Positions 1 to 64,000 of a DNA stretch of 64,000 nucleotides are shown here, in pieces. The position numbers and the translations under genes are program-made. The stretch covers positions 1,159 through 65,158 of the forward strand of contig JAILRS010000033.1 in NCBI GenBank assembly GCA_024698045.1. Direction: 5' to 3'. Under the pieces are notes generated by a model. It was given only the letters and a program-made list of their open reading frames with translations. It did not search any database and was not told where the DNA came from. The stretch's first letter is position 1; every line of letters begins with the position of its first letter. The stretch is from Selenomonadaceae bacterium (GTDB taxonomy: Bacteria > Bacillota > Negativicutes > Selenomonadales > Selenomonadaceae).

Positions 1-1131
1 AGAGATATCGGATTGTAATTCGGTTGCCAATCTGCGCCGTTCATATCCCACAGCACGATATCAGCCTTGCAACCTATTTCGAGTCGCCCGACATTTTCCA
101 AACCGATTGCCTTCGCTCCGAATTCTGTTGCCATTTGAACAGCCTGCGCGGCGGGAACCGTCAACGGATTTAGTGTAGCTACTTTTGCCAGAAGAGTCGC
201 CAACCGTATTTCTTCCAACATATCCAAATTATTATTGCTTGAAGTGCCGTCCGTACCCAAAGCAACAGTCACACCTTCGGCAAGCAATTTCGATACGGGC
301 GCGATACCGCTCGCCAATTTCATATTACTTCCGGGATTATGCGCCACGCGTATTTTTTTTGCCTTGATAATTTCAATTTCACTATCGCTCAGCCAAACAC
401 AATGTGCCGCCAAAGTTCCCGTATCAAATAAACCGGTCTCTGCCACGACTTCAAAGGGTCGCTTACCGTAATTCTTTATGCTATCGTTAATTTCAGTCTG
501 CGTTTCGTTCATATGCATATGAATTTCCGCGCCTAACTTTCCTGCCTGCGCGGCAACTTTCTTCAAGTATTCGGGCGGACAAGTATAAATTGCGTGCGGA
601 GCAAACATAACGGTAATTCTTCCGTCTGCCGCTCCGTGATAATTTTTGTACAGCTCCACATTTTCGGCAAGTTTTTCGTCGCCGTTAACGAAACTGATTA
701 AGCCGCGCGATAAAGATCCGCGCATGCCCGATTCGTCGACAACCTTCGCAACTTCATCCATACAAGGGCCATACATATCGGCGAATGCGGTTGTACCGCC
801 GCGAATCATTTCGACTGCCGCCAATGCCGCGCCCCAATAAATATCTTTACGTGTCATCTTCGCCTCGATAGGCCAGATATCTTTTTCCAACCAATCCATC
901 AAAGCTTTATCATCGGAATAACTGCGCAGTAAAGTCATCGAGGCATGAGTATGAGCATTAATCAATCCGGGTGTCGCAAATTTTCCGCGCCCATCGATTA
1001 CATTTTCGCCCGTGACTTCGCCGACTCCGATTGCCGAAATTTTATCGCCGTTCACATGAATATTTCCGGTCTTCACTTCGCCGCCGGCCGTTAACATTTG
1101 CACATTGGTTATTACAAAATTATCCGTCATA
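1..1131 (-). CDS. mtaD: 5-methylthioadenosine/S-adenosylhomocysteine deaminase-type amidohydrolase; the C-terminus runs off the left window edge
   Basis: Absent from the ORF track because no stop lies in the window. My minus-strand translation from ATG at 1131..1129 gives MTDNFVITNVQMLTAGGEVKTGNIHVNGDKISAIG...PGLINAHTHASMTLLRSYSDD...HMHMNETQTEI...ALGTDGTSSNNNLDMLEE. These are the HxH and DG..SNN motifs of the MtaD/TrzA amidohydrolase subfamily. It lies next to ahcY. Confidence 0.85.
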
Positions 1132-1197
1132 AAAATTGACGCGACATAACTTCCCGATATCGGAAGACAGTCGCGCCCGTCACTTCCTTTCTGTATA

Positions 1198-2436
1198 TCA
1201 GATGCCCAGATATTTACGCTGTTCTTCGGTTAACGTGTCGATTGTCACGCCGATTGATTCCAATTTTATTTCTGCGATTTTCGTGTTGATTTCGTTAGGC
1301 ATGTAGTAAACTTTGTTTTCCATCGTCTTGTGATTGTGGAGAATGTGCGCCATGCTGAAAAATTGTACGGCAAAACTCAAGTCCATAATTTCCGCGGGAT
1401 GACCGTCGCCCGAAGCCAAATTAACTAATCTGCCTTCCGCCAACAGATAAATTTTCCGTCCGTCGTGCTGTAAAAATTCCTCGACGTTATTGCGGACAAA
1501 TCTCCTCGTCAACGATTGCGAATCCAATTCGGGAATATTAATCTCTACATCAAAATGTCCCGCGTTCGCCAACATTACGCCGTCTTTCATCAACGGATAA
1601 TGTTCGCCGTTGATAACATCTTTATCGCCCGTCAAAGTCAAAAAGATATCGCCCAAAGGTGCGGCGTCTTTCATCGTCATGACGCGGAACCCGTCAAAGA
1701 CAGCCTCGATTGCCTTGATGGGATCCACTTCGGTTATGATGACATTGGCACCCAAACCGCGCGCACGCATCGCGCCGCCCTTGCCACACCAACCGTAACC
1801 GGCTATAACAACGGTTTTTCCTGCCACAACAAGATTTGTCGTGCGCATGATTCCATCCCAAGTCGATTGTCCCGTACCGTAGCGATTATCAAACAAGAAT
1901 TTACAATAAGCGTCATTAGCGGCAATCATCGGGCAAGCAAGTTCCTTACGACGTTCGAGGGCACGAAGACGCAAAACACCCGTAGTAGTTTCTTCAGAAC
2001 CGCCGATAATATTTTTCAGAGCGTCACGACGTGTAGTATGTATCAAGTCGGTAAAATCGCCGCCGTCATCGATGAAAAGATCCGGCGCATAATCCGCCGC
2101 CTTGTTTAAGTAATCGTTATATTCCTTGTCGGTGCAACCGTGAGTAGCCAAAACCGTCACACCGTCCTCGGCCAATGCCGCCGCTACATCATCCTGCGTT
2201 GACAGCGGATTCGAGCCCGTTATTACCACATTCGCCCCTGCATGCATGAATACTTCCGCCATATATGCAGTCTTTGCTTCCAAGTGTAAAGTTATGGAAA
2301 TAGTTTTGCCTGCGAACGGTTTTGACTGCGAAAATTCTCTGTCGATTGCGCTCATTACGGGCATGAAATTTTTTACCCACTCGATTTTATCATGTCCCGA
2401 AGGCGCAAGCTTGATGTCCCTTACGATTGATTTCAT
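1198..2436 (-). CDS. ahcY: adenosylhomocysteinase (S-adenosyl-L-homocysteine hydrolase)
   Basis: 412 aa ORF with the short-form SAHH layout: IEWVKNFMPV, GSNPLSTQDDVAAAL, GYGWCGKG NAD-binding motif, DVEI...L near the C-terminus. Confidence 0.95.
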   Translation of the reverse strand: MKSIVRDIKLAPSGHDKIEWVKNFMPVMSAIDREFSQSKPFAGKTISITLHLEAKTAYMAEVFMHAGANVVITGSNPLSTQDDVAAALAEDGVTVLATHGCTDKEYNDYLNKAADYAPDLFIDDGGDFTDLIHTTRRDALKNIIGGSEETTTGVLRLRALERRKELACPMIAANDAYCKFLFDNRYGTGQSTWDGIMRTTNLVVAGKTVVIAGYGWCGKGGAMRARGLGANVIITEVDPIKAIEAVFDGFRVMTMKDAAPLGDIFLTLTGDKDVINGEHYPLMKDGVMLANAGHFDVEINIPELDSQSLTRRFVRNNVEEFLQHDGRKIYLLAEGRLVNLASGDGHPAEIMDLSFAVQFFSMAHILHNHKTMENKVYYMPNEINTKIAEIKLESIGVTIDTLTEEQRKYLGI

Positions 2437-2521
2437 TGTAAATCCTCCCGAAGATTTTTTTAGACTTAATTATAATTTAAGTTGCAAATTCTTTCAATGC
2501 ACCGCGACAATATCGTTACGC

Positions 2522-2550
2522 TTGACTGCAGAAATAAAATTTGTTAAATT
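2522..2550 (+). promoter_or_regulatory. sigma-70-type promoter for the small ORF at 2569
   Basis: TTGACT (2522-2527), 17 nt spacer, TAAATT (2545-2550), with TG one base upstream (extended -10). Confidence 0.5.
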
Positions 2551-2568
2551 TCGCCTGAGGTGATTGTT

Positions 2569-2736
2569 ATGGGTAAACTTAGTTCAAGTATGGCTGAAAA
2601 ACTCAAGAACATGGCTCGCGGTTTGCAGGACGAAGACAATTCCGACGGCATAAGAGGTGTCGCGAAAAAAATCAAGCAGTCGCAATCCGGTAGGAAAAAC
2701 GTTTCCGATAGAAAAGAATCCGGTCGTAAAGACTGA
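2569..2736 (+). CDS. small hydrophilic protein, 55 aa, unknown function
   Basis: Below the 60 aa track cutoff. ATG is 7 nt after GAGGTGA. Translation is MGKLSSSMAEKLKNMARGLQDEDNSDGIRGVAKKIKQSQSGRKNVSDRKESGRKD. It has its own promoter upstream and a 10 bp hairpin plus T-run downstream. Confidence 0.55.
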   Translation: MGKLSSSMAEKLKNMARGLQDEDNSDGIRGVAKKIKQSQSGRKNVSDRKESGRKD

Positions 2737-2746
2737 AAATTTTTCG

Positions 2747-2779
2747 GCGGTCTCCGTTATTTCGGAGGCTGCTTTTTTT
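2747..2779 (+). terminator. Rho-independent terminator
   Basis: GCGGTCTCCG ttattt CGGAGGCTGC (10 bp including 2 G-U pairs) followed by TTTTTTT. Confidence 0.6.
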
Positions 2780-2920
2780 ATCAAAGGTGTTAATCCGAAC
2801 ACTTTGCATGGAAATTTTGTCGATGTGCAATCTGTGGTATTCTTTAATACAAAATTCATTCTCTACTGTTATATTGAATGTGGTTGTATTTATCAAAAAA
2901 TTTCGGCGGTGATTTTATTA

Positions 2921-3721: not shown

Positions 3722-3736
3722 AGGAGATGAGCAATT

Positions 3737-4708: not shown

Positions 4709-4766
4709 TTTGACGACCGAAAGGCGGTGGACGGTTGCGGAAAAATTTTAAGCCGCGCCGATTGTC

Positions 4767-5417: not shown

Positions 5418-5433
5418 TTTTGGAGGTGGTTAC

Positions 5434-6126: not shown

Positions 6127-6182
6127 TTTATGATACCAATCGGCGGAAAAATTTTTGCCGAAATATAAGGAGGTTTTTTTAT

Positions 6183-7951: not shown

Positions 7952-8473
7952 ATGGAATTGATTGATATCATGAGATCTCGCAGGAGCGTACGCCGTTACA
8001 CCGAGGAAAAAATTTCCGACGAACAACTTAAACAGATAGTAAGCGCGGCATTACTTGCTCCTTCGGGTCATTCAAAATATCCGTGCGAATTTTTAATCGT
8101 GAAGAACCGTGAATTATTGGAAGGCATGTCGAGTTGTCGCAAAGGTGTCGCAAAAATGTTGAGCGGCGCGGCGGCGGCAATCGTGGTTATCGCGGACAGA
8201 GATAAATCGGATACGATAATAGAAGATTCTTCGGTAGCGATGATGAATATGGAATTGATGGCGACGTCATTGGGGATTGGGAATTGTTGGATACAAGTGC
8301 GCGGTCGTGAGGCTGAAGATGATTCGACCAGCGAAAATTATCTGCGCAGTTTGTTAGACTTCCCCGAAAATTTTGCCTGTCAATCGATATTGTCGTTGGG
8401 ATTCCCCGCGAAAGATCCGAAGGTAAGAGAATTAGACAAGTTGGATTTCGACAAGGTCAAAGTCCTCGAATAA
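7952..8473 (+). CDS. nitroreductase-family protein (cytoplasmic)
   Basis: Track ORF 7790..8473 overlaps the previous gene. Homology starts at ATG 7952 (MELIDIMRSRRSVRRYTEEKISDEQLKQIVSAALLAPSG...GIGNCWIQ). Confidence 0.85.
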   Translation: MELIDIMRSRRSVRRYTEEKISDEQLKQIVSAALLAPSGHSKYPCEFLIVKNRELLEGMSSCRKGVAKMLSGAAAAIVVIADRDKSDTIIEDSSVAMMNMELMATSLGIGNCWIQVRGREAEDDSTSENYLRSLLDFPENFACQSILSLGFPAKDPKVRELDKLDFDKVKVLE

Positions 8474-15101: not shown

Positions 15102-15103
15102 AA

Positions 15104-19501: not shown

Positions 19502-20950
19502 TCAGGTTATAACATTTATCGTCTCCAAAGTCGAATCAAACGCGCCGATAACGCGACTGCCCGAAAGTTTTTCCTGACGAATCAGCGCGACAACTTCCGC
19601 GGATATTTTTTCTCCCGGCATAATCAACGGTATACCCGGCGGATAAAAAGTTATTTCCTCCGCACATATTCGCCCGATTGATTTTTCCAATCGAATTGAT
19701 TCAACAGGTGCGTAAAATGTTTCGCGCGGACTGATTGTCGCCGAAGAAATTATTTTCGGTACGATGGGCGGCGAAAATTTTTTTATCGGGCGTTGCGGCA
19801 ATTTTTTCAGCGCGTCGATTAAAATTTCCGCTGTCTGTTCGTTATCGGCGTATGTTATCAGGAACAACAGATTTGCGACATCGGATAGTTCGCATTGTAC
19901 TTTTAACTCGTTCCGCAAAATTTTTTCCGCTTCTTGTCCCGTCAAGCCCAAATCTTGCACATTCACCGTAACTTTTGTTGTATCCAATGAAAAATTTTTT
20001 ACCGTGTCGAATGTTTTCAACCTGCGCAGATTTTTTATTGCGGCACGAATTTTTTTCGACAGATTAACCGCCGAAGAAATTTTTTCGTGTCCGTCCGTTT
20101 CCATTTGCAATCGCGCGATATCCAACGACGCCAACAATATTTGATTCGGGCTTGTCGTTTGCAAGAGACTTGCCGCGCGTTTTACCTTTTCGACGTCGAT
20201 AAAATTTTTCCGCAACATCAGCATTGAAGTTTGAGTTAACGAGCCTAAAATTTTATGCGTTGACTGTGCCGATAAATCCGCGCCGCTGTCCATCGCCGAT
20301 AAAGGTAATTCGTCGCTGAATTGCAGATGTGCGCCGTGCGCCTCGTCCACCATCAAAATTATTCCGACTTCGTGCGCCAATCGTGCAATTTCCGCAACAT
20401 CCGCGGCTACTCCGTAATAATTCGGCGACACAAGTAAAATTGCCTTTACGTTCGGGAAATTTTTTATCGCGCGTTTTACAGTCTCCGTACTAACGTTCAG
20501 CGGCACACAAAATTTTTCGTCATATTCAACCGGCAAAAATATCGGTACCGCCCCCGATAAAATCAAACCTGCTATTACCGATCGATGTGCATTTCGCGGA
20601 ATCAATATCTCGTCGCCCGCTTTGAGCGTCCCGAAAATCATTGCCTGTACCGCCGCGCTTGTCCCGTTCACTACGAATATACATTCATCCGCATGCCAAA
20701 GTTTCGCCGCCAAATTTTCCGATTCCTTTATGCAAGTGTGCGGTTCGTGTAAATCGTCCAGCTCTTCCATCAACGAAACTTCTTGCCGCAATCCTTCCGA
20801 CGTTAACAGTTCGCGCAAAAATTCATGTGCGCCCCGTCCTTGTTTATGCCCCGGCGTATGGAACGGCGTCACTTTATCTGCGGAATATTTTTTCATTGCC
20901 GATACTATCGGCGCAGATTTTTCTTTCGGAACTCTAAGCAATAATATCAA
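19502..20950 (-). CDS. Orn/Lys/Arg decarboxylase-family PLP enzyme (SpeA/YaaO-like)
   Basis: FHTPGHKQGRG near the N-terminus and STHKILGSLTQTS (PLP lysine). The long start is kept because APIVSAMKKY...FHTPGHK matches the family N-terminus; the exact start (TTG 20950 or 20941) is uncertain. Confidence 0.85.
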   Translation of the reverse strand: MILLLRVPKEKSAPIVSAMKKYSADKVTPFHTPGHKQGRGAHEFLRELLTSEGLRQEVSLMEELDDLHEPHTCIKESENLAAKLWHADECIFVVNGTSAAVQAMIFGTLKAGDEILIPRNAHRSVIAGLILSGAVPIFLPVEYDEKFCVPLNVSTETVKRAIKNFPNVKAILLVSPNYYGVAADVAEIARLAHEVGIILMVDEAHGAHLQFSDELPLSAMDSGADLSAQSTHKILGSLTQTSMLMLRKNFIDVEKVKRAASLLQTTSPNQILLASLDIARLQMETDGHEKISSAVNLSKKIRAAIKNLRRLKTFDTVKNFSLDTTKVTVNVQDLGLTGQEAEKILRNELKVQCELSDVANLLFLITYADNEQTAEILIDALKKLPQRPIKKFSPPIVPKIISSATISPRETFYAPVESIRLEKSIGRICAEEITFYPPGIPLIMPGEKISAEVVALIRQEKLSGSRVIGAFDSTLETINVIT

Positions 20951-21112
20951 TCTCCTTTATAGTCACAAGCGCGGTCGTTAACTTTAGTTGTCGAAACCTT
21001 TGCCGCCACTTTCAAAGTGACTGTGCTTTCTTGAATAACTTTAATCGTTGTGTTAATCTTTGCTTGGTTATGATTTACGATTTTAACATTAACTGTTTGG
21101 AGGATTATAACT

Positions 21113-22918
21113 TTGATTGACAACTCTAACAACGGTAATGATGAATACGCTTCCAGATTAATACCGCTTGCTTTGTTTTGCGTGCTGGTTATAACGGCAC
21201 TGATTGTGCGGATATGGTATCTGCAAATTTACGACGGAGAATATTACGCGGACTTGGCGGACGGCAACCGAATCCGAATCATCCCGACAATGGCTCCGCG
21301 CGGTACATTCTACGACAGGAACGGGCAACCGCTTGTAACGAATCGCCCGGGCTTTAGTGTTTCATTTATGCCGTTGACCGCGCCGATTTCTCCCGAAGTC
21401 GTCGACCGTGTGTCTAAACTTTTGAACGTACCCAAAGAGGAGATTGAGCAAAGAATTTCTGTTCATTACGGTTTCGATCCGATACGAATCAGTATCGATG
21501 TAAGTCAGGAGATTGTGACGATAATCGAAGAGCAAAAAAATCTTTATCCGGGTGTCGTCATTGAGGTTCAACCGATTAGAAATTACGCGCTCAAACAGGA
21601 GGGCGCACACACTTTCGGTTACGTCAGCGAAATATCCGACGCGGAACTCGAGAAAAAAAAGGAAGAGGGTTACAAGTCGGGCGATATCATCGGCAAATTC
21701 GGTCTTGAACGCGTCTACGATAAATTGATTCGCGGCGTCAACGGCGGCGAACAGGTTGAAGTAGATGTATCGGGCAAACCTGTTCAAATTCTGGGTAAAA
21801 AGGAGCCGACGCCCGGCAATGATTTGATATTGACGATTGACGGCGATTTACAAATTGCGGCTGAAAATGCTGTTGACGAGATGCTTGGTCAACTTGGTTG
21901 TCATGCGGCGGCTGCCGTCGTGCTCAATCCGCAGAACGGCGAAGTACTTGCCATGGTCAGTCGTCCCGCATTCGATCCCAATCTTTTCGCTCACGGTATT
22001 TCTTCCAAAGATTGGAACGCGATTAACAATAATCCTTATCATCCGATGGATAACAAATGTATCACGGGCGAATATCCGCCGGGCTCCACGTTTAAAATTG
22101 TCACGGGTACGGCGGCACTTGCCGAGGGAAAAGTCGCGCCCGAAGAATTGATTTTCGACAGCGGTCAACACTGGTTGGTTCCCAAAGGTAATGCGGGCGG
22201 CGAAGCTTTGGGCTGGTTGAATTTTTATGCCGCGCTGTCACATTCCGATAACGTTTACTTTTACGAGATGGGTAACAGATTGGGCGTCGATTTACTTTCC
22301 GATTACGCCAAAAAATTCGGATTGGGTTCGGTCACGGGAATTGATTTGCCTTACGAATCTCCGGGGCTTGCCGATTGGCGTCAATACAAATGGGATGTCT
22401 ACAAAGACGAATGGTATTTATCCGAAACAATGGACGCGGCTATCGGGCAAGGTTTCAATTTGTTGACACCTTTACAAGCGGCGATGGTTATGGGCGAAAT
22501 TGCCGCCAACGGTAAAAGATATAAGCCGCATTTGGTTAAACAGATTGTCACGCAGGATAAGGAAGTAGTACAGGATTTTCAGCCCGAACTTGTCGGAGAA
22601 TTGCAAGTAGAGCCGTGGGTTATCGAGCTTGTGCAATCCGCTTTGAATGATGTTACCAAAAACGGAACGGCGGCGCGTAATTTCTACGGATTCCCTTACA
22701 ACATAGCAGGCAAGACGGGTACGGCGGAAAATTCTCAAGGTATAGATCATGGCTGGTTTGTCGGCTATGGGCCTTTTGAAAATCCGACAATTTCCGTTGC
22801 GGTTATCGTTGAGCAAGGCGGTTACGGTGCAAGCTCCGCCGTGCCTATCGGGCGCAAAATCATGGAGGCGGCTTTTAATCTGCAAGTTCAACGCGGTGAG
22901 CTTGTCGCACCCAAATAA
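21113..22918 (+). CDS. mrdA: penicillin-binding protein 2 (elongation-type class B transpeptidase)
   Basis: TTG start 8 nt after GGAGG. N-terminal TM, then NRIRIIPTMAPRGTFYDRNGQPLVTNRP (PBP2-type), STFK, SHSDN (SxN) and KTGTA motifs. Confidence 0.9.
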   Translation: MIDNSNNGNDEYASRLIPLALFCVLVITALIVRIWYLQIYDGEYYADLADGNRIRIIPTMAPRGTFYDRNGQPLVTNRPGFSVSFMPLTAPISPEVVDRVSKLLNVPKEEIEQRISVHYGFDPIRISIDVSQEIVTIIEEQKNLYPGVVIEVQPIRNYALKQEGAHTFGYVSEISDAELEKKKEEGYKSGDIIGKFGLERVYDKLIRGVNGGEQVEVDVSGKPVQILGKKEPTPGNDLILTIDGDLQIAAENAVDEMLGQLGCHAAAAVVLNPQNGEVLAMVSRPAFDPNLFAHGISSKDWNAINNNPYHPMDNKCITGEYPPGSTFKIVTGTAALAEGKVAPEELIFDSGQHWLVPKGNAGGEALGWLNFYAALSHSDNVYFYEMGNRLGVDLLSDYAKKFGLGSVTGIDLPYESPGLADWRQYKWDVYKDEWYLSETMDAAIGQGFNLLTPLQAAMVMGEIAANGKRYKPHLVKQIVTQDKEVVQDFQPELVGELQVEPWVIELVQSALNDVTKNGTAARNFYGFPYNIAGKTGTAENSQGIDHGWFVGYGPFENPTISVAVIVEQGGYGASSAVPIGRKIMEAAFNLQVQRGELVAPK

Positions 22919-23687: not shown

Positions 23688-24063
23688 CGAGGTCTCGGCG
23701 GAGGGCGGAATTTTTTCGGCGGCGTCGGTTCAGATGCAGATGAACTGAGAGGCTGCATGACCTTCGGTTTCGGGTTAATGAAACTATCTTTGACGTTTGT
23801 TTACTCCTTCGGGAATGAACACCGCTTAATATTGATTGATGCGTTCACTGCGCAGGCAATCATAAATCGTTTCGACATTACCGAAAGACACAAATCGTTA
23901 ACGCGTCAAATCGTTAACACCAAAATTCTTTAGGCACAAATACGTTTCTCCGAGATTATGCCTAATGAGGCTTTTTAAAATCTTTGAGTCGTTCGGCTTT
24001 CGTTACGGGAGTCGGCGACAAATAGACAATGCCGGAAATTTTTTGCCTTCCGCCGAGACCTTG
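23688..24063 (+). ncRNA. candidate large structured RNA / leader element closed by a long helix; alternative reading is a MITE-like inverted-repeat element
   Basis: 23688-23706 pairs with 24045-24063 (19 bp). 23707-23710 pairs with 24041-24044. 23713-23720 pairs with 24031-24038. Five of the 7 arm imperfections are G-U on the + strand. Internal hairpins: 23727-23762, 23799-23820 (C-UUCG-G capped), 23833-23862, 23870-23886, 23930-23965. Confidence 0.45.
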
Positions 24064-30570: not shown

Positions 30571-30603
30571 GTTATCACTTCCCCAAAAAATTTTTTCGGT
30601 TAA

Positions 30604-32541
30604 TCAAGCTTCCTTGTTGTTGCGAATTTGTATGCCGAGTATCACCGCAAAAATAGCTACGCCGATAACATCCGTGACCCAACCCGGATTGATTAACAGC
30701 AGACCGCCGCAGAACAATATAACTCGTTGCAAAGTATTCATCGATGCGGCAAGGTATCCGATTAACGACGAACTCAGCGCAATCATGCCGATAATCGCCG
30801 TGAACAATATCAATATCGTTTCAATCTCGAATCCGTTAATCAAAAGCAATTCGGGACTTAATACGAACATGTACGGGATGATGAAAGCCGCGATTGCCAA
30901 CTTTGATGCGTTAACACCCGTTCGCAATGCGTTGCCGCCCGATATGCCCGAACCTGCATATGCCGCCAATGCTACGGGTGGAGTGACGTCCGCTATGATG
31001 CCGAAGTAAAATACGAACATATGAGCCGCCAAAATCGGGACGCCTATACCGATTAATGCAGGCGCGGCAATTGTCGATGTGATAACGTAGTTGGCGGTAG
31101 TGGGAACCCCCATACCGAGTAAAATCGCCGTTAGCATTGTAAGAAACATAGCCGGAAGAATTAAGCCGCCCGATAAATTCAAAAGTGTCGACGCCAATTT
31201 TAATCCGACGCCCGTCTTTGTAACAACGCCGATTATTATGCCTGCCGACGCGCACGCAATCAACACACCCAAAACATTTCTTGCACCCGTCTCCAAGCCC
31301 TTGACTATTTCCATCGGCGACATACGCGTTTCTGCCTTTAAAGCCGATGCGACAATTGACAGGACAATAGCAATAAGTGCCGCGCGCATTGGGGTATAGC
31401 CGCTGACCAACAAGTAAACTATGACTATCAACGGTATCGCCAAATGTCCGCGTGTTCTTAAAATTTCTCCCAACTTCGGAAGTTGATCGCGCGGAATGCC
31501 CTGCAAATTATTTCTCTTCGCTTCAAAGTGAACACCCAACCATACCCCGGCAAAATAAAGTATCGCAGGAATAATAGCCGCCTTGACGATTTCAATGTAG
31601 GGTACGCCGACAAATTCAGCCATGAGGAAAGCCGCCGCGCCCATGACGGGGGGCATTAACTGTCCGCCTGTTGAGGCCGCCGCCTCTACCGCGCCCGCAA
31701 AATCTTTGTGGTAACCTAATTTTTTCATCATCGGGATTGTTAACGAACCTGTGCCGACAACATTTGCGACGGAACTGCCGCTGACAGTACCCATCAAGCC
31801 GCTGGACAACACCGCGACTTTTGCGGGGCCGCCGCTCGCCCAACCTGCTATTGCGTTCGCCGAATCAATAAAAAATTTTCCTAAGCCCGTGCCTTCCAAA
31901 TACGCGCCGAATAAAATAAAAAGAAAGATAAAAGTCGACGAGACACCGAGCGGAATACCGAAAATGCCTTCTGTCGTGAAGAAAACATGACTGACAAAAT
32001 AATCCACGGTTAATCCGCGATGCGCCAAAATCCCCGGCATGTAGGGACCTGCGAAAGCGTAGGCAATAAACAAAAGCACCACGCAAACCATTGGGATTCC
32101 GACAACGCGCCGCGCCGCCTCGATTACCAATAAAATTCCGATTGCACCGACAATAACATCGGTTGTAGTGGGAAGTGCTGCACGCAAAATCAGTTCGCGA
32201 TAATTTATAACTATGTAGGCAGGAGCCGCCGCGCCCATGATTGCTAAAATTAAATCGACGGGATGAAGTTTATCGCGCCGCCATGATTTTAATGTCGGAT
32301 ATAACAAATATGATAAGCATAAACCAAAACCCAAATGGATTGCGCGTTGCAGTTGCGCGTCCAATAATCCGAATGTCGCCGTGTATAATTGAAATACCGA
32401 AAAGCTTATTGCCAGTGCGGAAACAATTTTCGCCATTATTCCCGTATATTCCATTGTGTTGGATTCGTTGTCGTATTTTTTTAAAACTTCCTCGGCAGTC
32501 ATCTCTTTTCTCTTACTATCCAAAATTTTCACATCCCTCAT
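30604..32541 (-). CDS. TRAP transporter fused 4TM/12TM permease (TAXI-type)
   Basis: 645 aa polytopic protein. Size and the DctM-like repeats match fused TAXI-TRAP permeases. No solute-binding protein gene is adjacent. Confidence 0.85.
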   Translation of the reverse strand: MRDVKILDSKRKEMTAEEVLKKYDNESNTMEYTGIMAKIVSALAISFSVFQLYTATFGLLDAQLQRAIHLGFGLCLSYLLYPTLKSWRRDKLHPVDLILAIMGAAAPAYIVINYRELILRAALPTTTDVIVGAIGILLVIEAARRVVGIPMVCVVLLFIAYAFAGPYMPGILAHRGLTVDYFVSHVFFTTEGIFGIPLGVSSTFIFLFILFGAYLEGTGLGKFFIDSANAIAGWASGGPAKVAVLSSGLMGTVSGSSVANVVGTGSLTIPMMKKLGYHKDFAGAVEAAASTGGQLMPPVMGAAAFLMAEFVGVPYIEIVKAAIIPAILYFAGVWLGVHFEAKRNNLQGIPRDQLPKLGEILRTRGHLAIPLIVIVYLLVSGYTPMRAALIAIVLSIVASALKAETRMSPMEIVKGLETGARNVLGVLIACASAGIIIGVVTKTGVGLKLASTLLNLSGGLILPAMFLTMLTAILLGMGVPTTANYVITSTIAAPALIGIGVPILAAHMFVFYFGIIADVTPPVALAAYAGSGISGGNALRTGVNASKLAIAAFIIPYMFVLSPELLLINGFEIETILILFTAIIGMIALSSSLIGYLAASMNTLQRVILFCGGLLLINPGWVTDVIGVAIFAVILGIQIRNNKEA

Positions 32542-39852: not shown

Positions 39853-39883
39853 GACAAAAAAATTTCTGCCGCTCGTCACCTCC
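39853..39883 (-). repeat. 31 nt repeat, copy A, just 3' of the licD1 stop
   Basis: + strand gacaaaaaaatttctgccgctcgtcacctcc, 29/31 identical to 41214..41244. The minus strand reads GGAGGTGACGAGCGGCAGAAA..TTTTTGTC. Confidence 0.8.
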
Positions 39884-39897
39884 CATGATGTCGTTAG

Positions 39898-41061
39898 TTA
39901 ATCGTTTTGTTCTTCCAACAATACTCCTACAATCTGATCGTTTTCTTTTATCGGCGATTTGTTTGCGACTTTGGCAAAGTAATCTTTGTAGGAAATGTCT
40001 ACACTGTAGTCGGAAACGTGCGAAGGAGCATAAATTAATTTGTGCCAATCGCCGTATCTTGCTGCCAAAATGTTTTCGTAACCGGCGGGAACAGGCACTT
40101 CGATTTTTTCAAACGGCAGATAAATAATCTTCTCAAAGTCTTTCGTATTATAAGCGATTTTACGACCTGCGATTATATAATCTCTGAAGTCGGCAACGCA
40201 TTCCGAATCAAAGAAACTTTTCGCCATAAACGATTCGAATTGCAATGTACGCTCTTTATGTTTCAGCCCCATGAATTTTTTCATGCTCTCATGAGGCAGA
40301 TAGAATCTTTGATTATTTTCCATTGCTTTCTTCACATTATCGGGAAAAGCAATCATCCAAAGCAATTCTTTCGCTATTTGCCAATTTATTTCCTGTTGTT
40401 TTTCGATGAACGGCGGAGCAAAATCAAACGCAAAAATATCAATCCAAATACCTTGATTCACGTGTTTACGATTCGGCCACTGAATCATTGATGTACGACT
40501 GTCGCGAATTTTAATCATAGGCCAAAACGGAAACCAACCCGCAAAATCTTTTTCTTGTTGGAGCGGAACAAACTGTAAAGAATTATCGGAAGGAGAATCG
40601 GGACTTTCTTCGCTTTCCAATCTGTAATTGAACCATGCATCCAAAAAATAAGGCGGTTGAAGTTCCTGGGCGACGACCCTTTTAAATTTTTCGTAATCGG
40701 GACGGAACATAAATACATCAACATCATCATCCCATGGAATAAAGCCTTTGTGCCGCACCGCGCCGATAAGCGTACCCGAAAATACAAACCACTTAATGTC
40801 ATGTTTCTTACAAATTCTGTCAAATTCTTTCAGCAAACCGATTTGAACGTTCCACAATTTTTTTCGGTGACTTGTTACCAAAAAGCCGTTACGCATTTCG
40901 TCGCTGTCGATGTTTTCGATAAAAACTTCTTGATTGTCGATTGCGGAAACAGATTTTGATTTACGCAAAAAATCGTTCTGTTCGCGCAACAACTTATTTT
41001 GTTCTTCGAGTAATTCGTTTTGTCTGGTAATCGCGTCGAGTTTGTTTGTACCTTTTCCCAA
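39898..41061 (-). CDS. licD: LicD-family phosphotransferase with an N-terminal coiled-coil extension (copy 1)
   Basis: TTG start 7 nt after GGAGG. MGKGTNKLDAITRQNELLEEQNKLLREQNDFLRK, then EMRNGFLVTSHRKKLWNVQIGLLKEFDRICKKHDIKWFVFSGTLIGAVRHKGFIPWDDDVDV (LicD core with DxD). Confidence 0.88.
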   Translation of the reverse strand: MGKGTNKLDAITRQNELLEEQNKLLREQNDFLRKSKSVSAIDNQEVFIENIDSDEMRNGFLVTSHRKKLWNVQIGLLKEFDRICKKHDIKWFVFSGTLIGAVRHKGFIPWDDDVDVFMFRPDYEKFKRVVAQELQPPYFLDAWFNYRLESEESPDSPSDNSLQFVPLQQEKDFAGWFPFWPMIKIRDSRTSMIQWPNRKHVNQGIWIDIFAFDFAPPFIEKQQEINWQIAKELLWMIAFPDNVKKAMENNQRFYLPHESMKKFMGLKHKERTLQFESFMAKSFFDSECVADFRDYIIAGRKIAYNTKDFEKIIYLPFEKIEVPVPAGYENILAARYGDWHKLIYAPSHVSDYSVDISYKDYFAKVANKSPIKENDQIVGVLLEEQND

Positions 41062-41213
41062 TGATGAACCTCCTCAAAATTCGTTAAATCTGTAATTCTT
41101 TGGCCATCGTCTTGAAAATAAATTCTACGACCGTAGTTCCGTTTGTCTTCATGCAATTCATATTCTCGTCGAAAAATTTCACACGTATCGCAAACATATT
41201 ACCTATTGACCTA

Positions 41214-43125: not shown

Positions 43126-43929
43126 TTGAGCAAAGCGCGAGAAAAATTAATCACGGCGCGCAGAATTGTTATCAAGGTTGGTACAAGCACATTGGCACAT
43201 GCCGAAAGCGGCAAATTGAATTTGTACAGAATCGAACATTTAGTTCGTGAAATAGCCGATTTACATAATGCCGGTAAGGAAATAATTTTCGTGACTTCGG
43301 GCGCAATCGCTACCGGTTTAAACAAATTGGGCATGAAGAAAAAACCCGAGGGCATTCCCGAAAAACAGGCATTGGCGGCAATCGGTCAAGGTATCTTGAT
43401 GCATATCTACGAAAAATTTTTCGCCGAATACGGTCAAACAATCGGGCAAATACTTTTGACGAAGGAAAATGCCGCCGACGATCACGCTCGCGAAAATTCT
43501 CATAACTCCCTACGTGCAATCCTAGACATGGGCGCGATTCCCGTCATCAACGAAAATGACGCCGTGGCTGTCGACGAAATCAAAATCGGCGACAACGATA
43601 ATCTTTCCGCAATCGTGGCCAATATGATTAACGCCGATGTCTTAATCATATTGAGCGATATTGACGGACTTTATGACGGTAATCCGAAAGTCGACAAAAA
43701 TGCAAAGTTGATTGACGAAGTGCCGATAATCGACGAGGAGACGGAAAGAATAGCGGGCGGCGCGGGTACGAAATTGGGAACGGGCGGAATGCTTACGAAG
43801 ATACAAGCCGCCAAATCCGCAACCGCAAACGGTGTGACAATGTTAATCATAAACGGCGCAACCATCGGGAATATACGCAGAGCATTAAACGGCGAAAACA
43901 TCGGTACTATTTTCCCTTGTATGGATTGA
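43126..43929 (+). CDS. proB: glutamate 5-kinase (short form without PUA domain)
   Basis: TTG start. ARRIVIKVGTSTLAH...IIFVTSGAIATG...GDNDNLSA...GTGGMLTKIQAA. 267 aa. Confidence 0.93.
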   Translation: MSKAREKLITARRIVIKVGTSTLAHAESGKLNLYRIEHLVREIADLHNAGKEIIFVTSGAIATGLNKLGMKKKPEGIPEKQALAAIGQGILMHIYEKFFAEYGQTIGQILLTKENAADDHARENSHNSLRAILDMGAIPVINENDAVAVDEIKIGDNDNLSAIVANMINADVLIILSDIDGLYDGNPKVDKNAKLIDEVPIIDEETERIAGGAGTKLGTGGMLTKIQAAKSATANGVTMLIINGATIGNIRRALNGENIGTIFPCMD

Positions 43930-58666: not shown

Positions 58667-58710
58667 AACACTTTCGATAACGACTGAAAGTGCCGCCACC
58701 GCAAAGAAAA

Positions 58711-58801: not shown

Positions 58802-58873
58802 TCTCCTTTTGTTAACCGAACGAAAGGAGCCCACTCACACTATTGATAATTTCCGATAAATACAATATGAATA

Positions 58874-58902
58874 TTGACTGAAAGGGCATGATTTGCTACA
58901 AT
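58874..58902 (+). promoter_or_regulatory. near-consensus sigma-70 promoter of the stp-pknB-rsgA operon
   Basis: TTGACT (58874-58879), 17 nt spacer, TACAAT (58897-58902). Confidence 0.6.
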
Positions 58903-58948
58903 CAATTAACAAAAAATTATTCGTCGGATTTATCAAGAGGTGACTGTC

Positions 58949-59650: not shown

Positions 59651-59761
59651 TCATGTGCCGCGAAATTTTTTACTGCGCATTGAATATTTATCATGCAATG
59701 CGTGGGGCGATTGATTATGCGTTCCGTATTGCACATGATGCATTAATTTGAGGGGCATGAT

Positions 59762-61612
59762 ATGATTCAGCGAGTCTTAGGCGAGCGATACGAGCTCGAA
59801 GAGAAAATCGGTAGCGGTGGCATGGCTGAAGTCTACAAAGCCCATGATAGACTGCTTGCTCGTCCCGTTGCAGTGAAAATTCTCCATGCGGCTTACCGTT
59901 CGGACGTGGAATTTATCGAACGCTTTCACCGTGAAGCAAAATCGGCGGCGCGGCTCACGAATACACACATAGTCAGCGTTTACGACGTAGGCGAGGACGA
60001 CGGCGATCATTATATCGTAATGGAATATGTAAAGAGCAGCACACTCAAGAAAAAAATTCAGGACGAAGGACCTCTCGATTTGTTGGCTGCCGTTTCCATT
60101 GCAAAGGATATTGCCGACGGTCTCACTCATGCTCACGCAAATAATATCGTTCATTGCGATATCAAGCCGCATAATGTTTTGATGACCGAAGACGGACACG
60201 CAAAAATAACGGACTTCGGAATAGCGCGCGCGGTAACCGAATCGACTTTGACTTATGGCGGAAATGTTATCGGTTCGGTGCATTACTTTTCGCCCGAACA
60301 GGCGCGCGGCGGCTCAATTACTCCCAAATCCGATATCTATTCATTGGGTATCGTACTCTATGAAATGTTGACGAATCGTTTGCCGTTCACGGGCGATAAT
60401 CCCGTAGCGATAGCGATGAAACACCTTGAGGACGAGCCGATAGCTCCCAGTCGATATCGGCCGCAGATTCCGCCGATGCTTGAATCGATTATCTGCCGCG
60501 CAATGAGTAAAAGTCCCGAAATTCGTCCGTCAAGTTTCGAAATGATGCAGGAGCTGGGCAATGTCGAAAAAATATTGATGAGTTCTTCCGAAGGGACAGA
60601 CCCCGATGCGACAAAAGTTTTGAAACCGACAAACATCCCACCGCGCAGAATAAATCGTCAAGGTTTGGGCACAACCTCGAAAGACGATGCCAAAATTAAG
60701 AAGACCGTTCCCGAATCAAAACCGTTTTTCAAATCGAAAATTTTTATGTTCATGATGGTTTTCGTGCTGATGATTGGTTTCGGCGTGGGAATTTTTGCGG
60801 CGTTCGGGAATGTAATGGGTAACAGCGAAACGGTTGTAGTGCCCGATGTCAAAGGTAAACAACTCGCACTTGCCAGACAAATTTTGGAAGATGGCAAATT
60901 GCGCGTCAATGTCGCCGAAACATATGATGCAAGCGTCCCCGCGGGACAAGTTGTGTCACAAGATCCCGATGTAGGAAAAACAGTCAAAAGCAATCGTCTT
61001 GTCACGATTTATGTAAGCAAGGGCGGCGAAGAAATAGAAATGCCCGACTTAACGGGCTTGGCAAAGTCTGCGGCTGTCGAACGGATTCAAAAACTTGGAT
61101 TGAATTTGGGATCCGTTTACGAAAAAGATTCGGAAAGCGAACCGGGAACGGTTTTATCGCACGATCCGAACACCGGCACTAAAATTACTCGCGGACAAAT
61201 TATTGATTTGGTTGTCTCGCGCGGCGTGCCGCAAACTCAAACGCAGGAAGTGCAACAGGTTACCCGAAAAGTTACGCAGGTACCCGATGTCGCTTCGGTT
61301 AATTTGAGCAGTGCCGAAGAAAGTATCACGGGACGCGGATTAAAAGTCGGCTCCATAACGTATCAGGAAAGTCAGCAAACCGACGGGACGATTATATCGC
61401 AATCTCCTTCCGCCAATTCCGAAGTCGATTTGGATTCTTACGTTGATTTGGTTGTAGCGCGATATGTGCCGCCCGAACCCGAACCACAGCCGGAACCGCA
61501 ACCCGAGCCCCAACCCGTGGATAATTACAACGATGACAATAATTCGGATACATCTGCTCCCGTGGAGCCCGAACCTACACGCGAAGACAGTCAGCCGAAA
61601 GGAAATTATTGA
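59762..61612 (+). CDS. pknB: Ser/Thr protein kinase with extracellular PASTA repeats and a PEPQ-repeat tail
   Basis: Hanks kinase motifs (GSGGMAEVYKA, VAVKIL, HCDIKPHN, DFGIA), one TM, three PASTA units (VPDVKG..., MPDLTG..., VPDVAS...), then a PEPEPQPEPQPEPQPV tail. Confidence 0.94.
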   Translation: MIQRVLGERYELEEKIGSGGMAEVYKAHDRLLARPVAVKILHAAYRSDVEFIERFHREAKSAARLTNTHIVSVYDVGEDDGDHYIVMEYVKSSTLKKKIQDEGPLDLLAAVSIAKDIADGLTHAHANNIVHCDIKPHNVLMTEDGHAKITDFGIARAVTESTLTYGGNVIGSVHYFSPEQARGGSITPKSDIYSLGIVLYEMLTNRLPFTGDNPVAIAMKHLEDEPIAPSRYRPQIPPMLESIICRAMSKSPEIRPSSFEMMQELGNVEKILMSSSEGTDPDATKVLKPTNIPPRRINRQGLGTTSKDDAKIKKTVPESKPFFKSKIFMFMMVFVLMIGFGVGIFAAFGNVMGNSETVVVPDVKGKQLALARQILEDGKLRVNVAETYDASVPAGQVVSQDPDVGKTVKSNRLVTIYVSKGGEEIEMPDLTGLAKSAAVERIQKLGLNLGSVYEKDSESEPGTVLSHDPNTGTKITRGQIIDLVVSRGVPQTQTQEVQQVTRKVTQVPDVASVNLSSAEESITGRGLKVGSITYQESQQTDGTIISQSPSANSEVDLDSYVDLVVARYVPPEPEPQPEPQPEPQPVDNYNDDNNSDTSAPVEPEPTREDSQPKGNY

Positions 61613-61613
61613 T

Positions 61614-62489
61614 ATGCAAAATATCGGACGCGTAATAAAATTTTATAACAGTTTTTTCTTCGTGAAGTCGGATAACGAGTTAATCCCCTGCAAATTGCGC
61701 GGACTGCTCAAGCGCGACAAAAAAATCGGCAGTGCGGTCTGCGTCGGGGATTTCGTGGAAATATCAAGACTTAGGGACGGTAGCGGCGTGATTGAAAGTA
61801 TTCAGTCGCGCCGAAATTTTTTAATACGGCCGCCCGTTGCCAATGTCGACAGAGTTATTTTGACTTTCGCAGTCGACGCCCCGAAATTACATCCGCTGCT
61901 TTTGAATCGCTTTATCACTTTGGCGGAACAGTCCGCACTTGACGAAATTATAATTTGCGTCAACAAATCGGATTTGGCGACGGAAGAAAATTTTTTGGCG
62001 GAATATGAATCGCTCTACAAAATTTTGCGCGTGTCCGCCGCGACGGGTGAAGGCATTGACGAATTGAAAAAAATTTTGTCTACGGGCGTAACCGTTTTGG
62101 CAGGTCCCAGCGGTGTCGGAAAATCTTCGCTGTTAAACGCCGTGGATAATAATCTGCAACTTAAAGTCGGCAAAGTCAGCGAAAAAATTTTGCGCGGCAA
62201 ACATACGACACGTGTCGCCGAACTTCTGCAATACAACGACGGTTTTCTTGTCGATACTCCCGGTTTCAGCGCGGTTGATTTGGTTGACGCAGGTTTAGAC
62301 AAAAATAAATTGCGCCATTGCTTCAAGGAGTTTACCCAATTCGCAGGCGCATGTAAATTTCGCAATGTATGTACTCACAGCCACGAACCCGATTGCGGCG
62401 TTAAAGCGGCCGTTGAGCGCGGCGATATCCTTCGTGAACGCTATGATGCTTATCTTACTTTATTGAACGAAGTTGCCGCCGATAAGTAA
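61614..62489 (+). CDS. rsgA: ribosome small-subunit-dependent GTPase A
   Basis: Track ORF 61464.. is an out-of-frame overlap with pknB. ATG 61614 is 1 nt after the pknB stop. GRVIKFYNSFFFV...NKSDL...LAGPSGVGKSSL...HTT...DTPGF...C.F..C.H..EPDC. Confidence 0.92.
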   Translation: MQNIGRVIKFYNSFFFVKSDNELIPCKLRGLLKRDKKIGSAVCVGDFVEISRLRDGSGVIESIQSRRNFLIRPPVANVDRVILTFAVDAPKLHPLLLNRFITLAEQSALDEIIICVNKSDLATEENFLAEYESLYKILRVSAATGEGIDELKKILSTGVTVLAGPSGVGKSSLLNAVDNNLQLKVGKVSEKILRGKHTTRVAELLQYNDGFLVDTPGFSAVDLVDAGLDKNKLRHCFKEFTQFAGACKFRNVCTHSHEPDCGVKAAVERGDILRERYDAYLTLLNEVAADK

Positions 62490-62516
62490 ATGTCAAAAAA
62501 TTTATCCGAAAGGTTT

Positions 62517-63173
62517 TTAAGCGTATTTCATGACTACGCCGCGAATCATATCACTGACTTTCTTCGTGTGGTCTAAGGCGTCCTCAATGTCCTCTAAGAT
62601 GTCTTTCCACTTAATCAGATGAATGACCGCGCGGCTGGCTCCGTGCTCCTTTGCCGCCTCTACTGCGTCGTCGAAAAGTATTCCGATTTCGGATCGGTAA
62701 ATCAAATCGCCCGCGCTTTCCCAATTTGAAACTTTGTGCACCGAATCCAAAATCTCGCGCTGATTGTTTTTCACGTCACTCAAAAGCTTGAACATCTTGA
62801 CAAGTTCTTCGGTGCTTTCAACCAAAAGCTTTGTCAAATCGGGACTGCGTTGTGTCGAATGTCCCGCGCTGTACATCAAAATTCTCTGCAATGCGCCCTG
62901 TATCATGTCGACGCCTATGCCCAATTCGCTCGCTATGGAGTAAATATCTTCGCGATCTATCGGCGTGATAAAACTTAAGTTTAGTTTGTTGAAAATCTTT
63001 TCGTTGATTTCGTCTGCGGCCGTTTCAAGACCCAAAATTTCCTCGCTCTGTTCGCTGGATTTATTTGGGTCTTTTATTATGTTGTCAAGTAAGACCGCGC
63101 CCCGATTGAAAAATTTTGCGTTCTCGACAAATAAATCGAAGAACTCCGTATCTTTTCGAGCAAAATTAAACAT
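62517..63173 (-). CDS. DUF47 (PhoU-like, YkaA/TIGR00153) family protein
   Basis: MFNFARKDTEFFDLFVENAKFF...ETAADEINEKIFNKLNLSFITPIDREDIYSIASEL... is the typical DUF47 layout. Confidence 0.82.
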   Translation of the reverse strand: MFNFARKDTEFFDLFVENAKFFNRGAVLLDNIIKDPNKSSEQSEEILGLETAADEINEKIFNKLNLSFITPIDREDIYSIASELGIGVDMIQGALQRILMYSAGHSTQRSPDLTKLLVESTEELVKMFKLLSDVKNNQREILDSVHKVSNWESAGDLIYRSEIGILFDDAVEAAKEHGASRAVIHLIKWKDILEDIEDALDHTKKVSDMIRGVVMKYA

Positions 63174-63185
63174 GGTAGACCTCCG

Positions 63186-63500
63186 TTAAAGTTTTTCGGT
63201 CATCAAGCCGTAAATGCATTTGCGACTACACCAACCGTTTGAGTGACCGTGATTATTTGAAATTTGATATGTATTGCCGTTTCGTATCGCCGTAATTTTA
63301 TGTAGATAGTAATGCCCTGCCACTTTGCAGAAGACAATATTATTTTTGGCAAGTTTTATGTCGGCGGTAACGGGTACAACGATTGCAGGCTGCCCGGATT
63401 TTAAAATCGGTGTCATCGATTGCCCGAACCCTATTATCGTTATTGTTTCTCCTGCTTGAAGATGTTCCGCCGAAATTTTATTTTCCCTCCCGACAAACAT
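63186..63500 (-). CDS. small S24/S26-peptidase-like single-domain protein
   Basis: 104 aa. GQSMTPILKSGQ resembles the G(D)SM.P nucleophile motif of the LexA/signal-peptidase fold, with K in FCKVAGHYYLHKI downstream. This is a weak, motif-level call. Confidence 0.45.
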   Translation of the reverse strand: MFVGRENKISAEHLQAGETITIIGFGQSMTPILKSGQPAIVVPVTADIKLAKNNIVFCKVAGHYYLHKITAIRNGNTYQISNNHGHSNGWCSRKCIYGLMTEKL

Positions 63501-63530
63501 CTTATCAGCTCCCGAAAAATTTTGCGCCGA

Positions 63531-64000
63531 TTAATTAAACCATTTCATGACTTCCTTTGTCGCGCCGCGCAGACAAAATAAAATCGTCCTGTCGCCCGGC
63601 TCAAGAATCGTATTGCCGTTCGGGATTGCCGCCTTGTTTTTCCGTACGTAAGCGCAAACCAGACACGATTTCGGTAAATTGACTTCCATTAATTTTTTGC
63701 CGGCAACTTTCGCGCCGCTTTGCACTATCAATTCAACGGCTTCCGCTCTTGCTCCTTCCAATATCGATACGCTTACCACACCGCCGCGCCGTACGAATGC
63801 AAGTACCTCGCTGGCTGCCAAAAGACGCGCCGAAATGACGATATCAACGCCGACTTTCTCGATTAAATCAGCGTACTCCGTTCGATAAACGCGTACAACT
63901 GTTTTTTTCGCGCCCAAGTGTTTTGCCAAAAGTGCCATCATCAAATTTAATTTATCGTCTTCGGTCAAACATACTACAACATCTGCCGACGCGATTCCCT
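63531..64000 (-). CDS. trkA: Trk-type potassium uptake protein TrkA (C-terminal RCK part); the N-terminus lies beyond the right window edge
   Basis: The frame stays open to the window edge (..GIASADVVVCLTEDDKLNLMMALLAKHLGAKKTVVRV...). The RCK_C part is EAVELIVQSGAKVAGKKLMEVNLPKSCLVCAYVRKN. Confidence 0.85.
   Translation of the reverse strand, partial: GIASADVVVCLTEDDKLNLMMALLAKHLGAKKTVVRVYRTEYADLIEKVGVDIVISARLLAASEVLAFVRRGGVVSVSILEGARAEAVELIVQSGAKVAGKKLMEVNLPKSCLVCAYVRKNKAAIPNGNTILEPGDRTILFCLRGATKEVMKWFN

Follow-up and report, generated by a model that had tools for sequence, protein, structure and literature searches.

A(n)T(m) blocks on a lattice of about two helical turns across the genes and spacers of Quinella

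The DNA described here, called the window throughout, is a stretch of 64,000 nt (contig C28:1159-65158) from a 2.08 Mb assembly of 40 contigs, and its subject is the palindromic octamer AAAATTTT together with the class of A/T-only blocks, A(n)T(m), to which this word belongs. The source genus is Quinella, an uncultured giant rumen bacterium with cells up to 8 µm long and a volume about 60 times that of E. coli, to which GTDB assigns three published bins with less than 10% contamination (PMC9585023). The paper on these bins makes no mention of nucleoid, histone or DNA-binding proteins (PMC9585023). The nrdD protein of the window is 88-91% identical to those of rumen Selenomonadaceae metagenome-assembled genomes and 73% identical to that of Selenomonas ruminantium, and the DNA divergence of all species representatives of the genus is at least 18%; exact-protein searches for a closely related strain turned up no syntenic match. 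Genes were represented by greedy, non-overlapping open reading frames (ORFs) of at least 90 amino acids (aa), which are crude calls covering 90% of the genome.

By exact count the window contains 78 copies of AAAATTTT: 53 fall within ORFs, and the other 25 within the 11% made up of spacer or boundary sequence. The copies mark the crests of A(n)T(m) blocks, which together occupy 4.3% of the window. A first-pass annotation made from the letters alone had put the number at 75-80 by hand, and the four examples that it quoted were all located. Its estimate of a G+C content in the mid-40s agrees with the measured 44.8%, and its expectation of about one copy per 30 kb under independent bases is reproduced. 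The mirror octamer TTTTAAAA is rare, as that annotation had said, with three copies in the window, although it had seen only the one near 23972 and not those at 32479 and 63399.

AAAATTTT starts, exact count: 2736, 4742, 4772, 5445, 6148, 7051, 7197, 7230, 8367, 8540, 8877, 9402, 10355, 11824, 14115, 14541, 15314, 15538, 17114, 17150
AAAATTTT starts, continued: 17316, 18491, 18549, 18708, 19774, 19917, 19991, 20201, 20247, 20509, 22937, 22983, 24292, 25502, 26486, 26599, 27861, 29043, 30237, 30485
AAAATTTT starts, continued: 30587, 31872, 32522, 33858, 33914, 36503, 37560, 38866, 39724, 41218, 41524, 42806, 43007, 43413, 44803, 46863, 46963, 47163, 47318, 49195
AAAATTTT starts, continued: 50354, 50561, 50649, 51023, 53368, 55028, 59105, 59144, 59180, 59444, 60737, 61637, 61987, 62019, 62070, 62184, 63110, 63516
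6148..6155: quoted example cggAAAAATTTTTgccg, exact count
8367..8374, 43413..43420 and 63516..63523: the other quoted examples, exact count
19774..20516: densest run of blocks, inside a gene for a pyridoxal phosphate-dependent decarboxylase (19502-20950, minus strand)
23973..23980, 32479 and 63399: TTTTAAAA, a contrast outside the system

The densest run holds six AAAATTTT (19774, 19917, 19991, 20201, 20247, 20509) and several A3-4T5-7 blocks, each with CG-rich flanks, and its gene carries 10.35 blocks per kb against a genome median of 4.57.

The pattern of the window is that of the genome. In the 2.08 Mb (44.5% G+C), AAAATTTT is the top-ranked 8-mer with 1951 copies, evenly spread (9.4 per 10 kb with a variance of 16; 3 of 189 bins have none), and TTTTAAAA has 116. 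The next four ranks among octamers are taken by A5T3 (1694), A3T5 (1618), A2T6 (1115) and A6T2 (1102). In the window, A5T5 is found 20 times and T5A5 not at all. The ratio of observed to expected copies (O/E) of AAAATTTT in the genome is 26.8 under a Markov model of order 0 and 3.2 at order 3, in line with the earlier view that the excess is far beyond chance; it is 4.2 at order 1, 1.7 at order 4, 1.42 at order 5 and 1.07 at order 6. The value falls to near 1 at order 6 because related words such as A5T3 and A3T5 are inflated just as much.

Since AAA, TTT, ATT and AAT are frequent codons and ORFs contain about 1444-1451 of the 1951 copies, the excess might be thought to follow from codon usage and from common peptides (K-I-F/L, K/E-N-F, K-F). 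This was examined in the ORFs with two codon nulls, a synonymous shuffle that keeps the protein and the codon usage of each gene, and a shuffle of codon order. The synonymous shuffle yields 651 copies against 1451 observed (O/E 2.2, z 38) and the codon-order shuffle 197 (O/E 7.4), and the difference between the 7.4-fold and the 2.2-fold excess implies that amino-acid order too is bent towards AAAATTTT. All three codon phases are used (680/369/402, encoding KIL, KIF, KNF, ENF and xKFx), much as the first-pass annotation had described, and one and the same K-F peptide comes with or without a block according to the site, as the species comparison below illustrates. Non-coding DNA is enriched equally or more: its 207 kb (39.9% G+C) hold 447 copies, with O/E of 32, 5.2 and 3.1 at orders 0, 1 and 3, and the density is 2.15 per kb there against 0.77 in coding DNA. 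The enrichment in non-coding DNA thus equals the genome-wide level, and we are dealing with a DNA-level pattern and not a peptide effect. The explanation by peptides and codons is refuted by the synonymous-shuffle excess together with the non-coding enrichment, and we leave it virtually no chance of being correct.

Two simpler accounts of the asymmetry were also rejected. A plain bias towards A/T runs does not fit, because poly-A and poly-T octamers are under-represented in ORFs (O/E 0.4-0.6 against the synonymous shuffle), and a depletion of TTTAAA by restriction does not fit, because TTTAAA has an O/E of 1.14 in ORFs. On the same scale TTTTAAAA stands at 0.90 and AAAAAAAA at 0.51; the asymmetry therefore reflects surplus A(n)T(m) rather than a shortage of T(n)A(m) or a bias towards A/T runs. 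Earlier statements that no single peptide can account for the octamer, that the excess is specific to A(n)T(n) over T(n)A(n), and that it is a DNA-level feature of an architectural type are all borne out, the first by the shuffle and the non-coding DNA, the other two by the codon-aware null and the TTTTAAAA control that had been named for them.

The unit of the pattern is wider than the octamer. Among maximal A/T-only runs of 8-9 bp flanked by G or C, about 20% have the A+T+ form, which is open to only 7 of the 256 possible A/T 8-mers, and 0.5-1.6% have the T+A+ form; pure poly-A or poly-T runs flanked in this way number 48 of exactly eight in the genome (27 A8, 21 T8) and 10 of nine. The count matrix of maximal A(n)T(m) runs peaks at n=m (205, 275, 368, 516, 419, 280 and 258 for the series n+m=8), and the blocks are mostly 6-11 bp long, free of TpA, with n about equal to m. 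Neither a longer consensus nor palindromy was found in the flanks of the A-to-T junction. CpG is 1.4-fold enriched about 7-9 bp from the junction, and G+C reaches 54-57% at 7-10 bp against the mean of 44.5%, so that the flanking by G or C noted earlier holds as a tendency. The dinucleotide odds of the genome are 1.67 for CG, 1.35 for AA/TT, 1.27 for GC, 0.70 for TA and 0.65 for AG/CT. An A/T string without TpA must be of the form A(n)T(m), and with long homopolymers disfavoured, A4T4 is therefore the natural modal octamer. In other genomes, the CpG odds are 1.5-1.66 in three further members of the genus and 0.65-1.36 in the other family genera sampled, and AG/CT is depleted throughout this genome and the genus samples (odds 0.65-0.73).

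These properties bear directly on the possibility that AAAATTTT is a specific word, whether an uptake sequence, a palindrome like HIP1 of cyanobacteria associated with a methyltransferase or with repair, or the site of a single protein. A density of about one per kb, the even spread, the palindromic form and the restriction to one lineage would all suit such a word. Its shifted and one-off variants, however, are nearly as common: next to 1951 copies of A4T4, the shifted A5T3 and A3T5 reach the counts given above, and the one-off variants have 467-715 copies each in the genome (GAAATTTT 715, AAATATTT 606). In ORFs, AAAGTTTT, AAAACTTT and AAATATTT exceed the synonymous shuffle 2.2- to 2.6-fold, similar to AAAATTTT, and with an O/E of 1.07 at order 6 and no flanking consensus there is no word specificity. 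This genome does possess an octamer that acts like a word, CTGCGCAG (O/E 11, species-specific), and the contrast is plain. The likeness to uptake signals drawn in the first-pass annotation therefore falls, and with it the HIP1-type word; a specific-word explanation is largely refuted and we consider it highly improbable. AAAATTTT is the commonest word of a genus-wide DNA style and is itself no signal or recognition word.

The blocks are not scattered at random along the DNA but prefer a lattice of about 19.7-20 bp, or two helical turns, and their register holds over about 150-300 bp, both within genes and between them. Centre-to-centre distances between AAATTT motifs peak at 18, 38-40, 57-60, 76-80 and 97-100 bp. 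The autocorrelation of A/T, smoothed over 3 bp to take out codon periodicity, dips at lag 9 (-0.045) and then rises to sharp peaks at 38, 59, 79, 99, 118, 138 and 159, and the power spectrum of the genome has its maximum at 19.7-20.0 bp. A spacing in multiples of about 10.5 bp, which had been anticipated, was not what we found: A/T is anti-correlated at 9-10 bp, and power at 10.3-10.9 bp lies under the background with only a small harmonic at about 9.9 bp. Regression over lags 30-630 gives a period of 19.78 bp, and the fitted peak centres follow 19.96n - 1.1. The amplitude of the comb halves every ~100-150 bp and decays over about 300 bp. The width of its peaks is constant (sigma 1.9-2.3 bp) from the second to the seventh multiple, where a chain of variable-length blocks would be expected to broaden as the square root of n; we infer that the blocks act as if placed on a ruler with many empty positions. 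The shift is genome-wide, since the ratio of power in the 19.2-20.4 bp band over 1.2 kb windows has a median of 1.18 against 0.94 in the null, and the A/T spectrum of the 64,000 nt window itself peaks at 19.7 bp with 1.44 times the median. Three loci of extreme 20 bp power proved to be tandem repeats of 39 or 78 bp, and the comb persists when they are masked.

The lattice is a property of the DNA and not a protein periodicity. Within ORFs, codon position 3 carries the strongest comb (peaks at 13, 19-20, 26-27 and 33 codons) and position 1 a weaker one; the synonymous shuffle nearly erases it and the codon-order shuffle abolishes it. In genes, the pattern is thus written mainly through synonymous codons and partly through the choice of amino acids. 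In spacers 120 bp or longer (167 kb altogether), a trough at 8-10 bp is followed by peaks near 17, 37, 58, 79 and 99, and the phase of the comb is not locked to stop codons.

Tandem arrays form a related observation. Among 73 independent arrays the unit is 39 bp in 8 and 78 bp in 5 (two and four times 19.5 bp), and units of 99 and 177 bp occur too; several of the arrays show no sequence relationship, and one is an acidic repeat of 13 aa in FlhF. In-frame repeat units that preserve the register of about 19.7 bp seem to be favoured.

C12:22596-23403, C4:55722-56205, C4:35146-35579 and C8:8-482: tandem-repeat arrays
C2:5104-5518, C26:141195-141409, C28:72022-72279 (just past the end of the window) and C36:19949-20410: tandem-repeat arrays

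The excess of AAAATTTT is confined to the genus. All 60 sampled members have either a large excess of the octamer or frequent AAATTT pairs, and the first 18 carry 488-5802 copies per genome, 3- to 27-fold over TTTTAAAA. The 38 other genera of the family, which are without the excess, have 34-989 copies per genome, and in 12 other families of the class the ratio of AAAATTTT to TTTTAAAA is about 1. The comb was sought in relatives on long contigs of three further genus members, here called G160, G159 and G164.

G160: 56.4% G+C, period 19.65 bp, amplitude 4.25, with 1.06 AAAATTTT per kb and no TTTTAAAA
G159: 44.7% G+C, period 19.6 bp, amplitude 4.56
G164: 41.0% G+C, period about 20.05 bp, amplitude 1.65, weak

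Neither the trough at lag 9 nor the comb was seen in three other genera of the family and one other family. One of the sister genera without a comb has 41.1% G+C and 0.09 AAAATTTT per kb, and G+C content is therefore no explanation for the trait. Samples of about 100 kb from fragmented contigs of G004, G016 and G003 did not reveal a comb, being too noisy. Numbers of AAATTT pairs spaced 37-41 versus 47-51 bp, compared in 41 genus members, are 157/85 in G000, 115/28 in G160, 95/47 in G011 and 302/153 in G159; the contrast is also clear in G150, G001 and G017. The unevenness of this contrast across the genus indicates that block excess and phasing are partly separable: the block excess is universal in Quinella and the strength of the phasing varies.

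Whether such blocks are kept in place was addressed across species by aligning the codons of six genes (11-30 species, DNA identity 69-82%) and scoring the sites whose peptides are able to encode AAAATT, AAATTT or AATTTT. Such sites vary greatly in whether they carry the block. The K-F dipeptide carries AAATTT in 0/21, 2/15, 5/8 and 7/8 species at four sites. Species agree in block state (on or off) with a concordance of 0.71 at one and the same site and of 0.52 when different sites encoding that peptide are compared, corresponding to a rho of 0.40 (bootstrap 0.21-0.44) where two-fold codons in the same alignments give 0.16 (0.11-0.17). Block positions are thus remembered about 2.5 times better across species than other silent choices.

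Our results suggest, with moderate confidence, that weak genome-wide selection on DNA shape or nucleoid packing maintains the block lattice. A(n)T(m) segments would be rigid and intrinsically bent with a narrow minor groove, and a spacing of about 19.7-20 bp would bring them round to almost the same side of the helix at each second turn, which could give the DNA a regularly curved or gently superhelical path. Alternatively, the segments may serve as evenly spaced docking sites in the minor groove for an abundant nucleoid protein in these very large cells. The selection on each block would be weak, giving way to translational and protein constraints in highly expressed genes. A stronger form of the proposal is that the lattice is the footprint of a chromatin-like packaging in which an abundant protein or filament contacts the A(n)T(m) minor groove every two turns and the genome has been rewritten to fit, down to the choice of codons and amino acids; we put this forward tentatively, as rather unlikely in so complete a form.

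Several observations weigh against selection on DNA shape or packing. Genes with a histone fold (PF00808) or Alba domain (PF01918) were found in none of 25 genomes (16 genus members and 9 from other families of the class) by a search that did detect the archaeal control genomes. The genome has a single HU gene (C8:77856-78122), which codes for an ordinary protein of 89 aa, and beyond it no candidate reader was identified in a scan of small basic ORFs that gave mostly out-of-frame noise. The pair-spacing contrast of AAATTT is clear in only about a quarter of the genus members and close to 1.0 in many. The phase coherence of third-position A/T in the six conserved genes is raised at all periods, without a special peak near 20 bp, and says little either way. 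The density of blocks across genes ranges from 0 to 16 per kb, the richest being PolA, a U32-family protein, the PglZ of a BREX-4 system and a leucine-rich-repeat protein, and the poorest enolase, GlgC, MeaB, the fructose phosphotransferase system (PTS), lactate permease and giant repeat proteins; blocks are rarest in genes that are likely to be highly expressed (enolase, GlgC, PTS, lactate permease), and a mutation bias opposed by selection would look alike. Finally, strains were compared using contigs of two metagenome runs, 95-99% identical to the window. Among the differences listed are 213 single-nucleotide polymorphisms (SNPs), a number of limited power, of which 11.8 would be expected within A(n)T(m) blocks 6 bp or longer and 8 are observed there (P=0.17). 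The data exclude a ten-fold protection of blocks (P=3e-5), and a three-fold one is borderline (P=0.048). Since SNPs hit blocks at nearly the expected rate, purifying selection on a single block, if there is any, must be weak. Block lengths are polymorphic as well, with differences of 1-2 bases between strains at several blocks.

30584..30594: A6T6 block cccAAAAAATTTTTTcgg with a strain length difference, contigs of run X6 lacking 2 bases at 30584 and 1 at 30591
30584-30594, 32526, 37530, 37564, 26938 and 18078: single-base strain length differences in or beside A/T runs

The same strain contigs revealed larger differences. One X6 contig joins 39852 to 41214, skipping 1361 bp (39853-41213) that hold an ORF of 387 aa (39898-41061) of a licD-type operon, and a second, weaker joint skips 20037-21639.

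The main rival to selection on DNA shape or packing is that the blocks are a neutral by-product of a lineage-specific, context-dependent bias of mutation or repair, which raises AA/TT, AT and CpG, lowers TpA and AG/CT, and makes long homopolymers unstable, so that A(n)T(m) is the only A/T-rich string left without TpA or long runs. Low-order composition does explain most of the 27-fold excess (O/E 4.2 at order 1 and 1.7 at order 4), all sequence classes are affected equally, and the whole genus shares the pattern at 41-56% G+C. The rarity of blocks where codon selection is strongest, the lack of a significant SNP depletion in blocks and the single-base indels that alter their lengths between strains would follow from such a bias too. 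What it does not readily provide is the lattice: a process that reads a few neighbours cannot set a register over at least seven periods without broadening of the peaks, and the anti-correlation at 9-10 bp followed by a sharp comb is left unexplained. Nor does it explain why the on/off state of blocks is about 2.5 times better conserved across species than other silent choices, or why amino-acid order is bent (7.4-fold under the codon-order against 2.2-fold under the synonymous shuffle). Taken together, the tests point to a force that is weak at each site and yields to stronger constraints, which both weak selection and mutation bias fit. We favour a structural constraint because of the long-range register and the extra positional memory, and regard mutation bias as a possible but less than likely origin of the blocks.

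Another explanation is co-evolution of the genome with a silencing or defence factor whose targets are flexible A/T-rich stretches containing TpA; by keeping its own A/T content in rigid A-tracts, the host would leave only foreign DNA to be bound. There is a published precedent in Rok and MvaT, which favour TpA steps and avoid A(n)T(m) tracts, and Rok-bearing Bacillus genomes are rich in A-tracts (PMC6212790); long A/T runs are here overwhelmingly free of TpA, and across the genus the odds of TA are 0.39-0.70. This explanation nevertheless gives no reason for the 20 bp lattice, and no silencer gene was identified, although Rok, H-NS, Lsr2 and MvaT were not searched for. A BREX-4 type defence island at C37:35361-47533 (PglZ match E 5e-114, G+C 36-40%) is also relevant: it is likely to be mobile, yet bears the host signature, with AAATTT 83 times against 19 for TTTAAA and AAAATTTT 31 times against 5 for TTTTAAAA. 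We judge co-evolution with a silencer to be improbable.

Other words of this genome have their own distributions. The palindrome CTGCGCAG has 477 copies in the genome and 15 in the window, and its O/E of 11 against the synonymous shuffle gives it the top z score among octamers in ORFs. It lies in all three codon phases, mostly as T-CTGCGCAG-A, and 18 other genus members sampled have 0-60 copies each, two of them none. Unlike AAAATTTT, it behaves like a true recognition word, driven by methylation, repair or something similar. Strongly avoided genome-wide are GATC (1963 copies, about a quarter of expectation), TTCGAA (132) and TGGCCA (41), and octamers that contain them are near zero in ORFs; this avoidance looks like a restriction-modification footprint.

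922, 8342, 10462, 15123, 20022, 23848, 27971, 28949, 34083, 34308, 42704, 49049, 53678, 54628 and 58390: CTGCGCAG in the window

To our knowledge, the periodicities described so far in bacterial sequences correspond to a single helical turn, and what they are for is still debated. Quinella offers a whole genus with a much stronger, period-doubled signal that overrides codon choice at 41-56% G+C, and thus a clear system in which to ask whether "structural codes" are under selection and what would read them. Because the cells have about 60 times the volume of E. coli, the organisation of their nucleoid may be unusual. In practical terms, the block signature is a sharp marker for binning or recognising Quinella DNA in rumen metagenomes, and it calls for caution with codon-based predictions of expression or horizontal transfer in this lineage.

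Among known systems, HIP1 (GCGATCGC), the highly iterated palindrome of cyanobacteria, is a single exact word whose abundance exceeds what its sub-words would predict. AAAATTTT resembles it in being a palindromic, lineage-specific octamer found about once per kb in spacers and in all frames of genes, and differs from it in being a member of a class variable in length and register, with no excess left at order 6. The density of about one per kb also recalls the uptake signal sequence (USS) of Pasteurellaceae and the DNA uptake sequence (DUS) of Neisseriaceae, and the flanks of the USS contain segments of A followed by T (PMC1626085). In contrast to these, AAAATTTT has no specific core or orientation, its variants are as common, and the 20 bp phasing has no counterpart there. 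A possible partial analogue is found in Bacillus, where Rok-bearing genomes are A-tract rich because Rok avoids A-tracts (PMC6212790). In Quinella, likewise, A/T is written as rigid, TpA-free A(n)T(m) tracts, but the excess is far larger and no lattice has been reported in Bacillus.

The closest relative of the pattern is the A-tract periodicity of prokaryotes. An over-representation of A(n)T(m) and clusters of A-tracts phased at 10-12 bp over about 100 bp have been described there and read as an aid to nucleoid packing (Tolstorukov et al. 2005 as cited in PMC4761138 and PMC2843746; the periodicity surveys of Mrazek and Herzel as cited in PMC3940949, PMC3431218 and PMC7537859). The survey by Mrazek covered periods of 5-20 bp, as it is described in PMC7537859, and the Quinella period therefore lies at the edge of its range. 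Full-text searches brought up no report of a 20 bp periodicity in any bacterial genome, and nothing on the abundance of AAAATTTT in bacteria. As in the known periodicity, which is usually interpreted as DNA curvature or nucleoid packaging, Quinella prefers A(n)T(m) over T(n)A(m), does so in coding and non-coding DNA, and gathers its tracts in clusters of about 100-300 bp. An architectural reading of the blocks is plausible. The differences lie in the period, which is 10-11 bp in the known cases and about 19.7-20 bp here, A/T being anti-correlated at 9-10 bp; in the unit, which is about one helical turn long and alternates with a CpG-rich block; and in the extremity of the signal, AAAATTTT being the top octamer even at 56% G+C, and in one genus only. 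The period-doubled lattice of A/T blocks over the genes and spacers of Quinella is specific to this genus and is a new form of the known A-tract periodicity.

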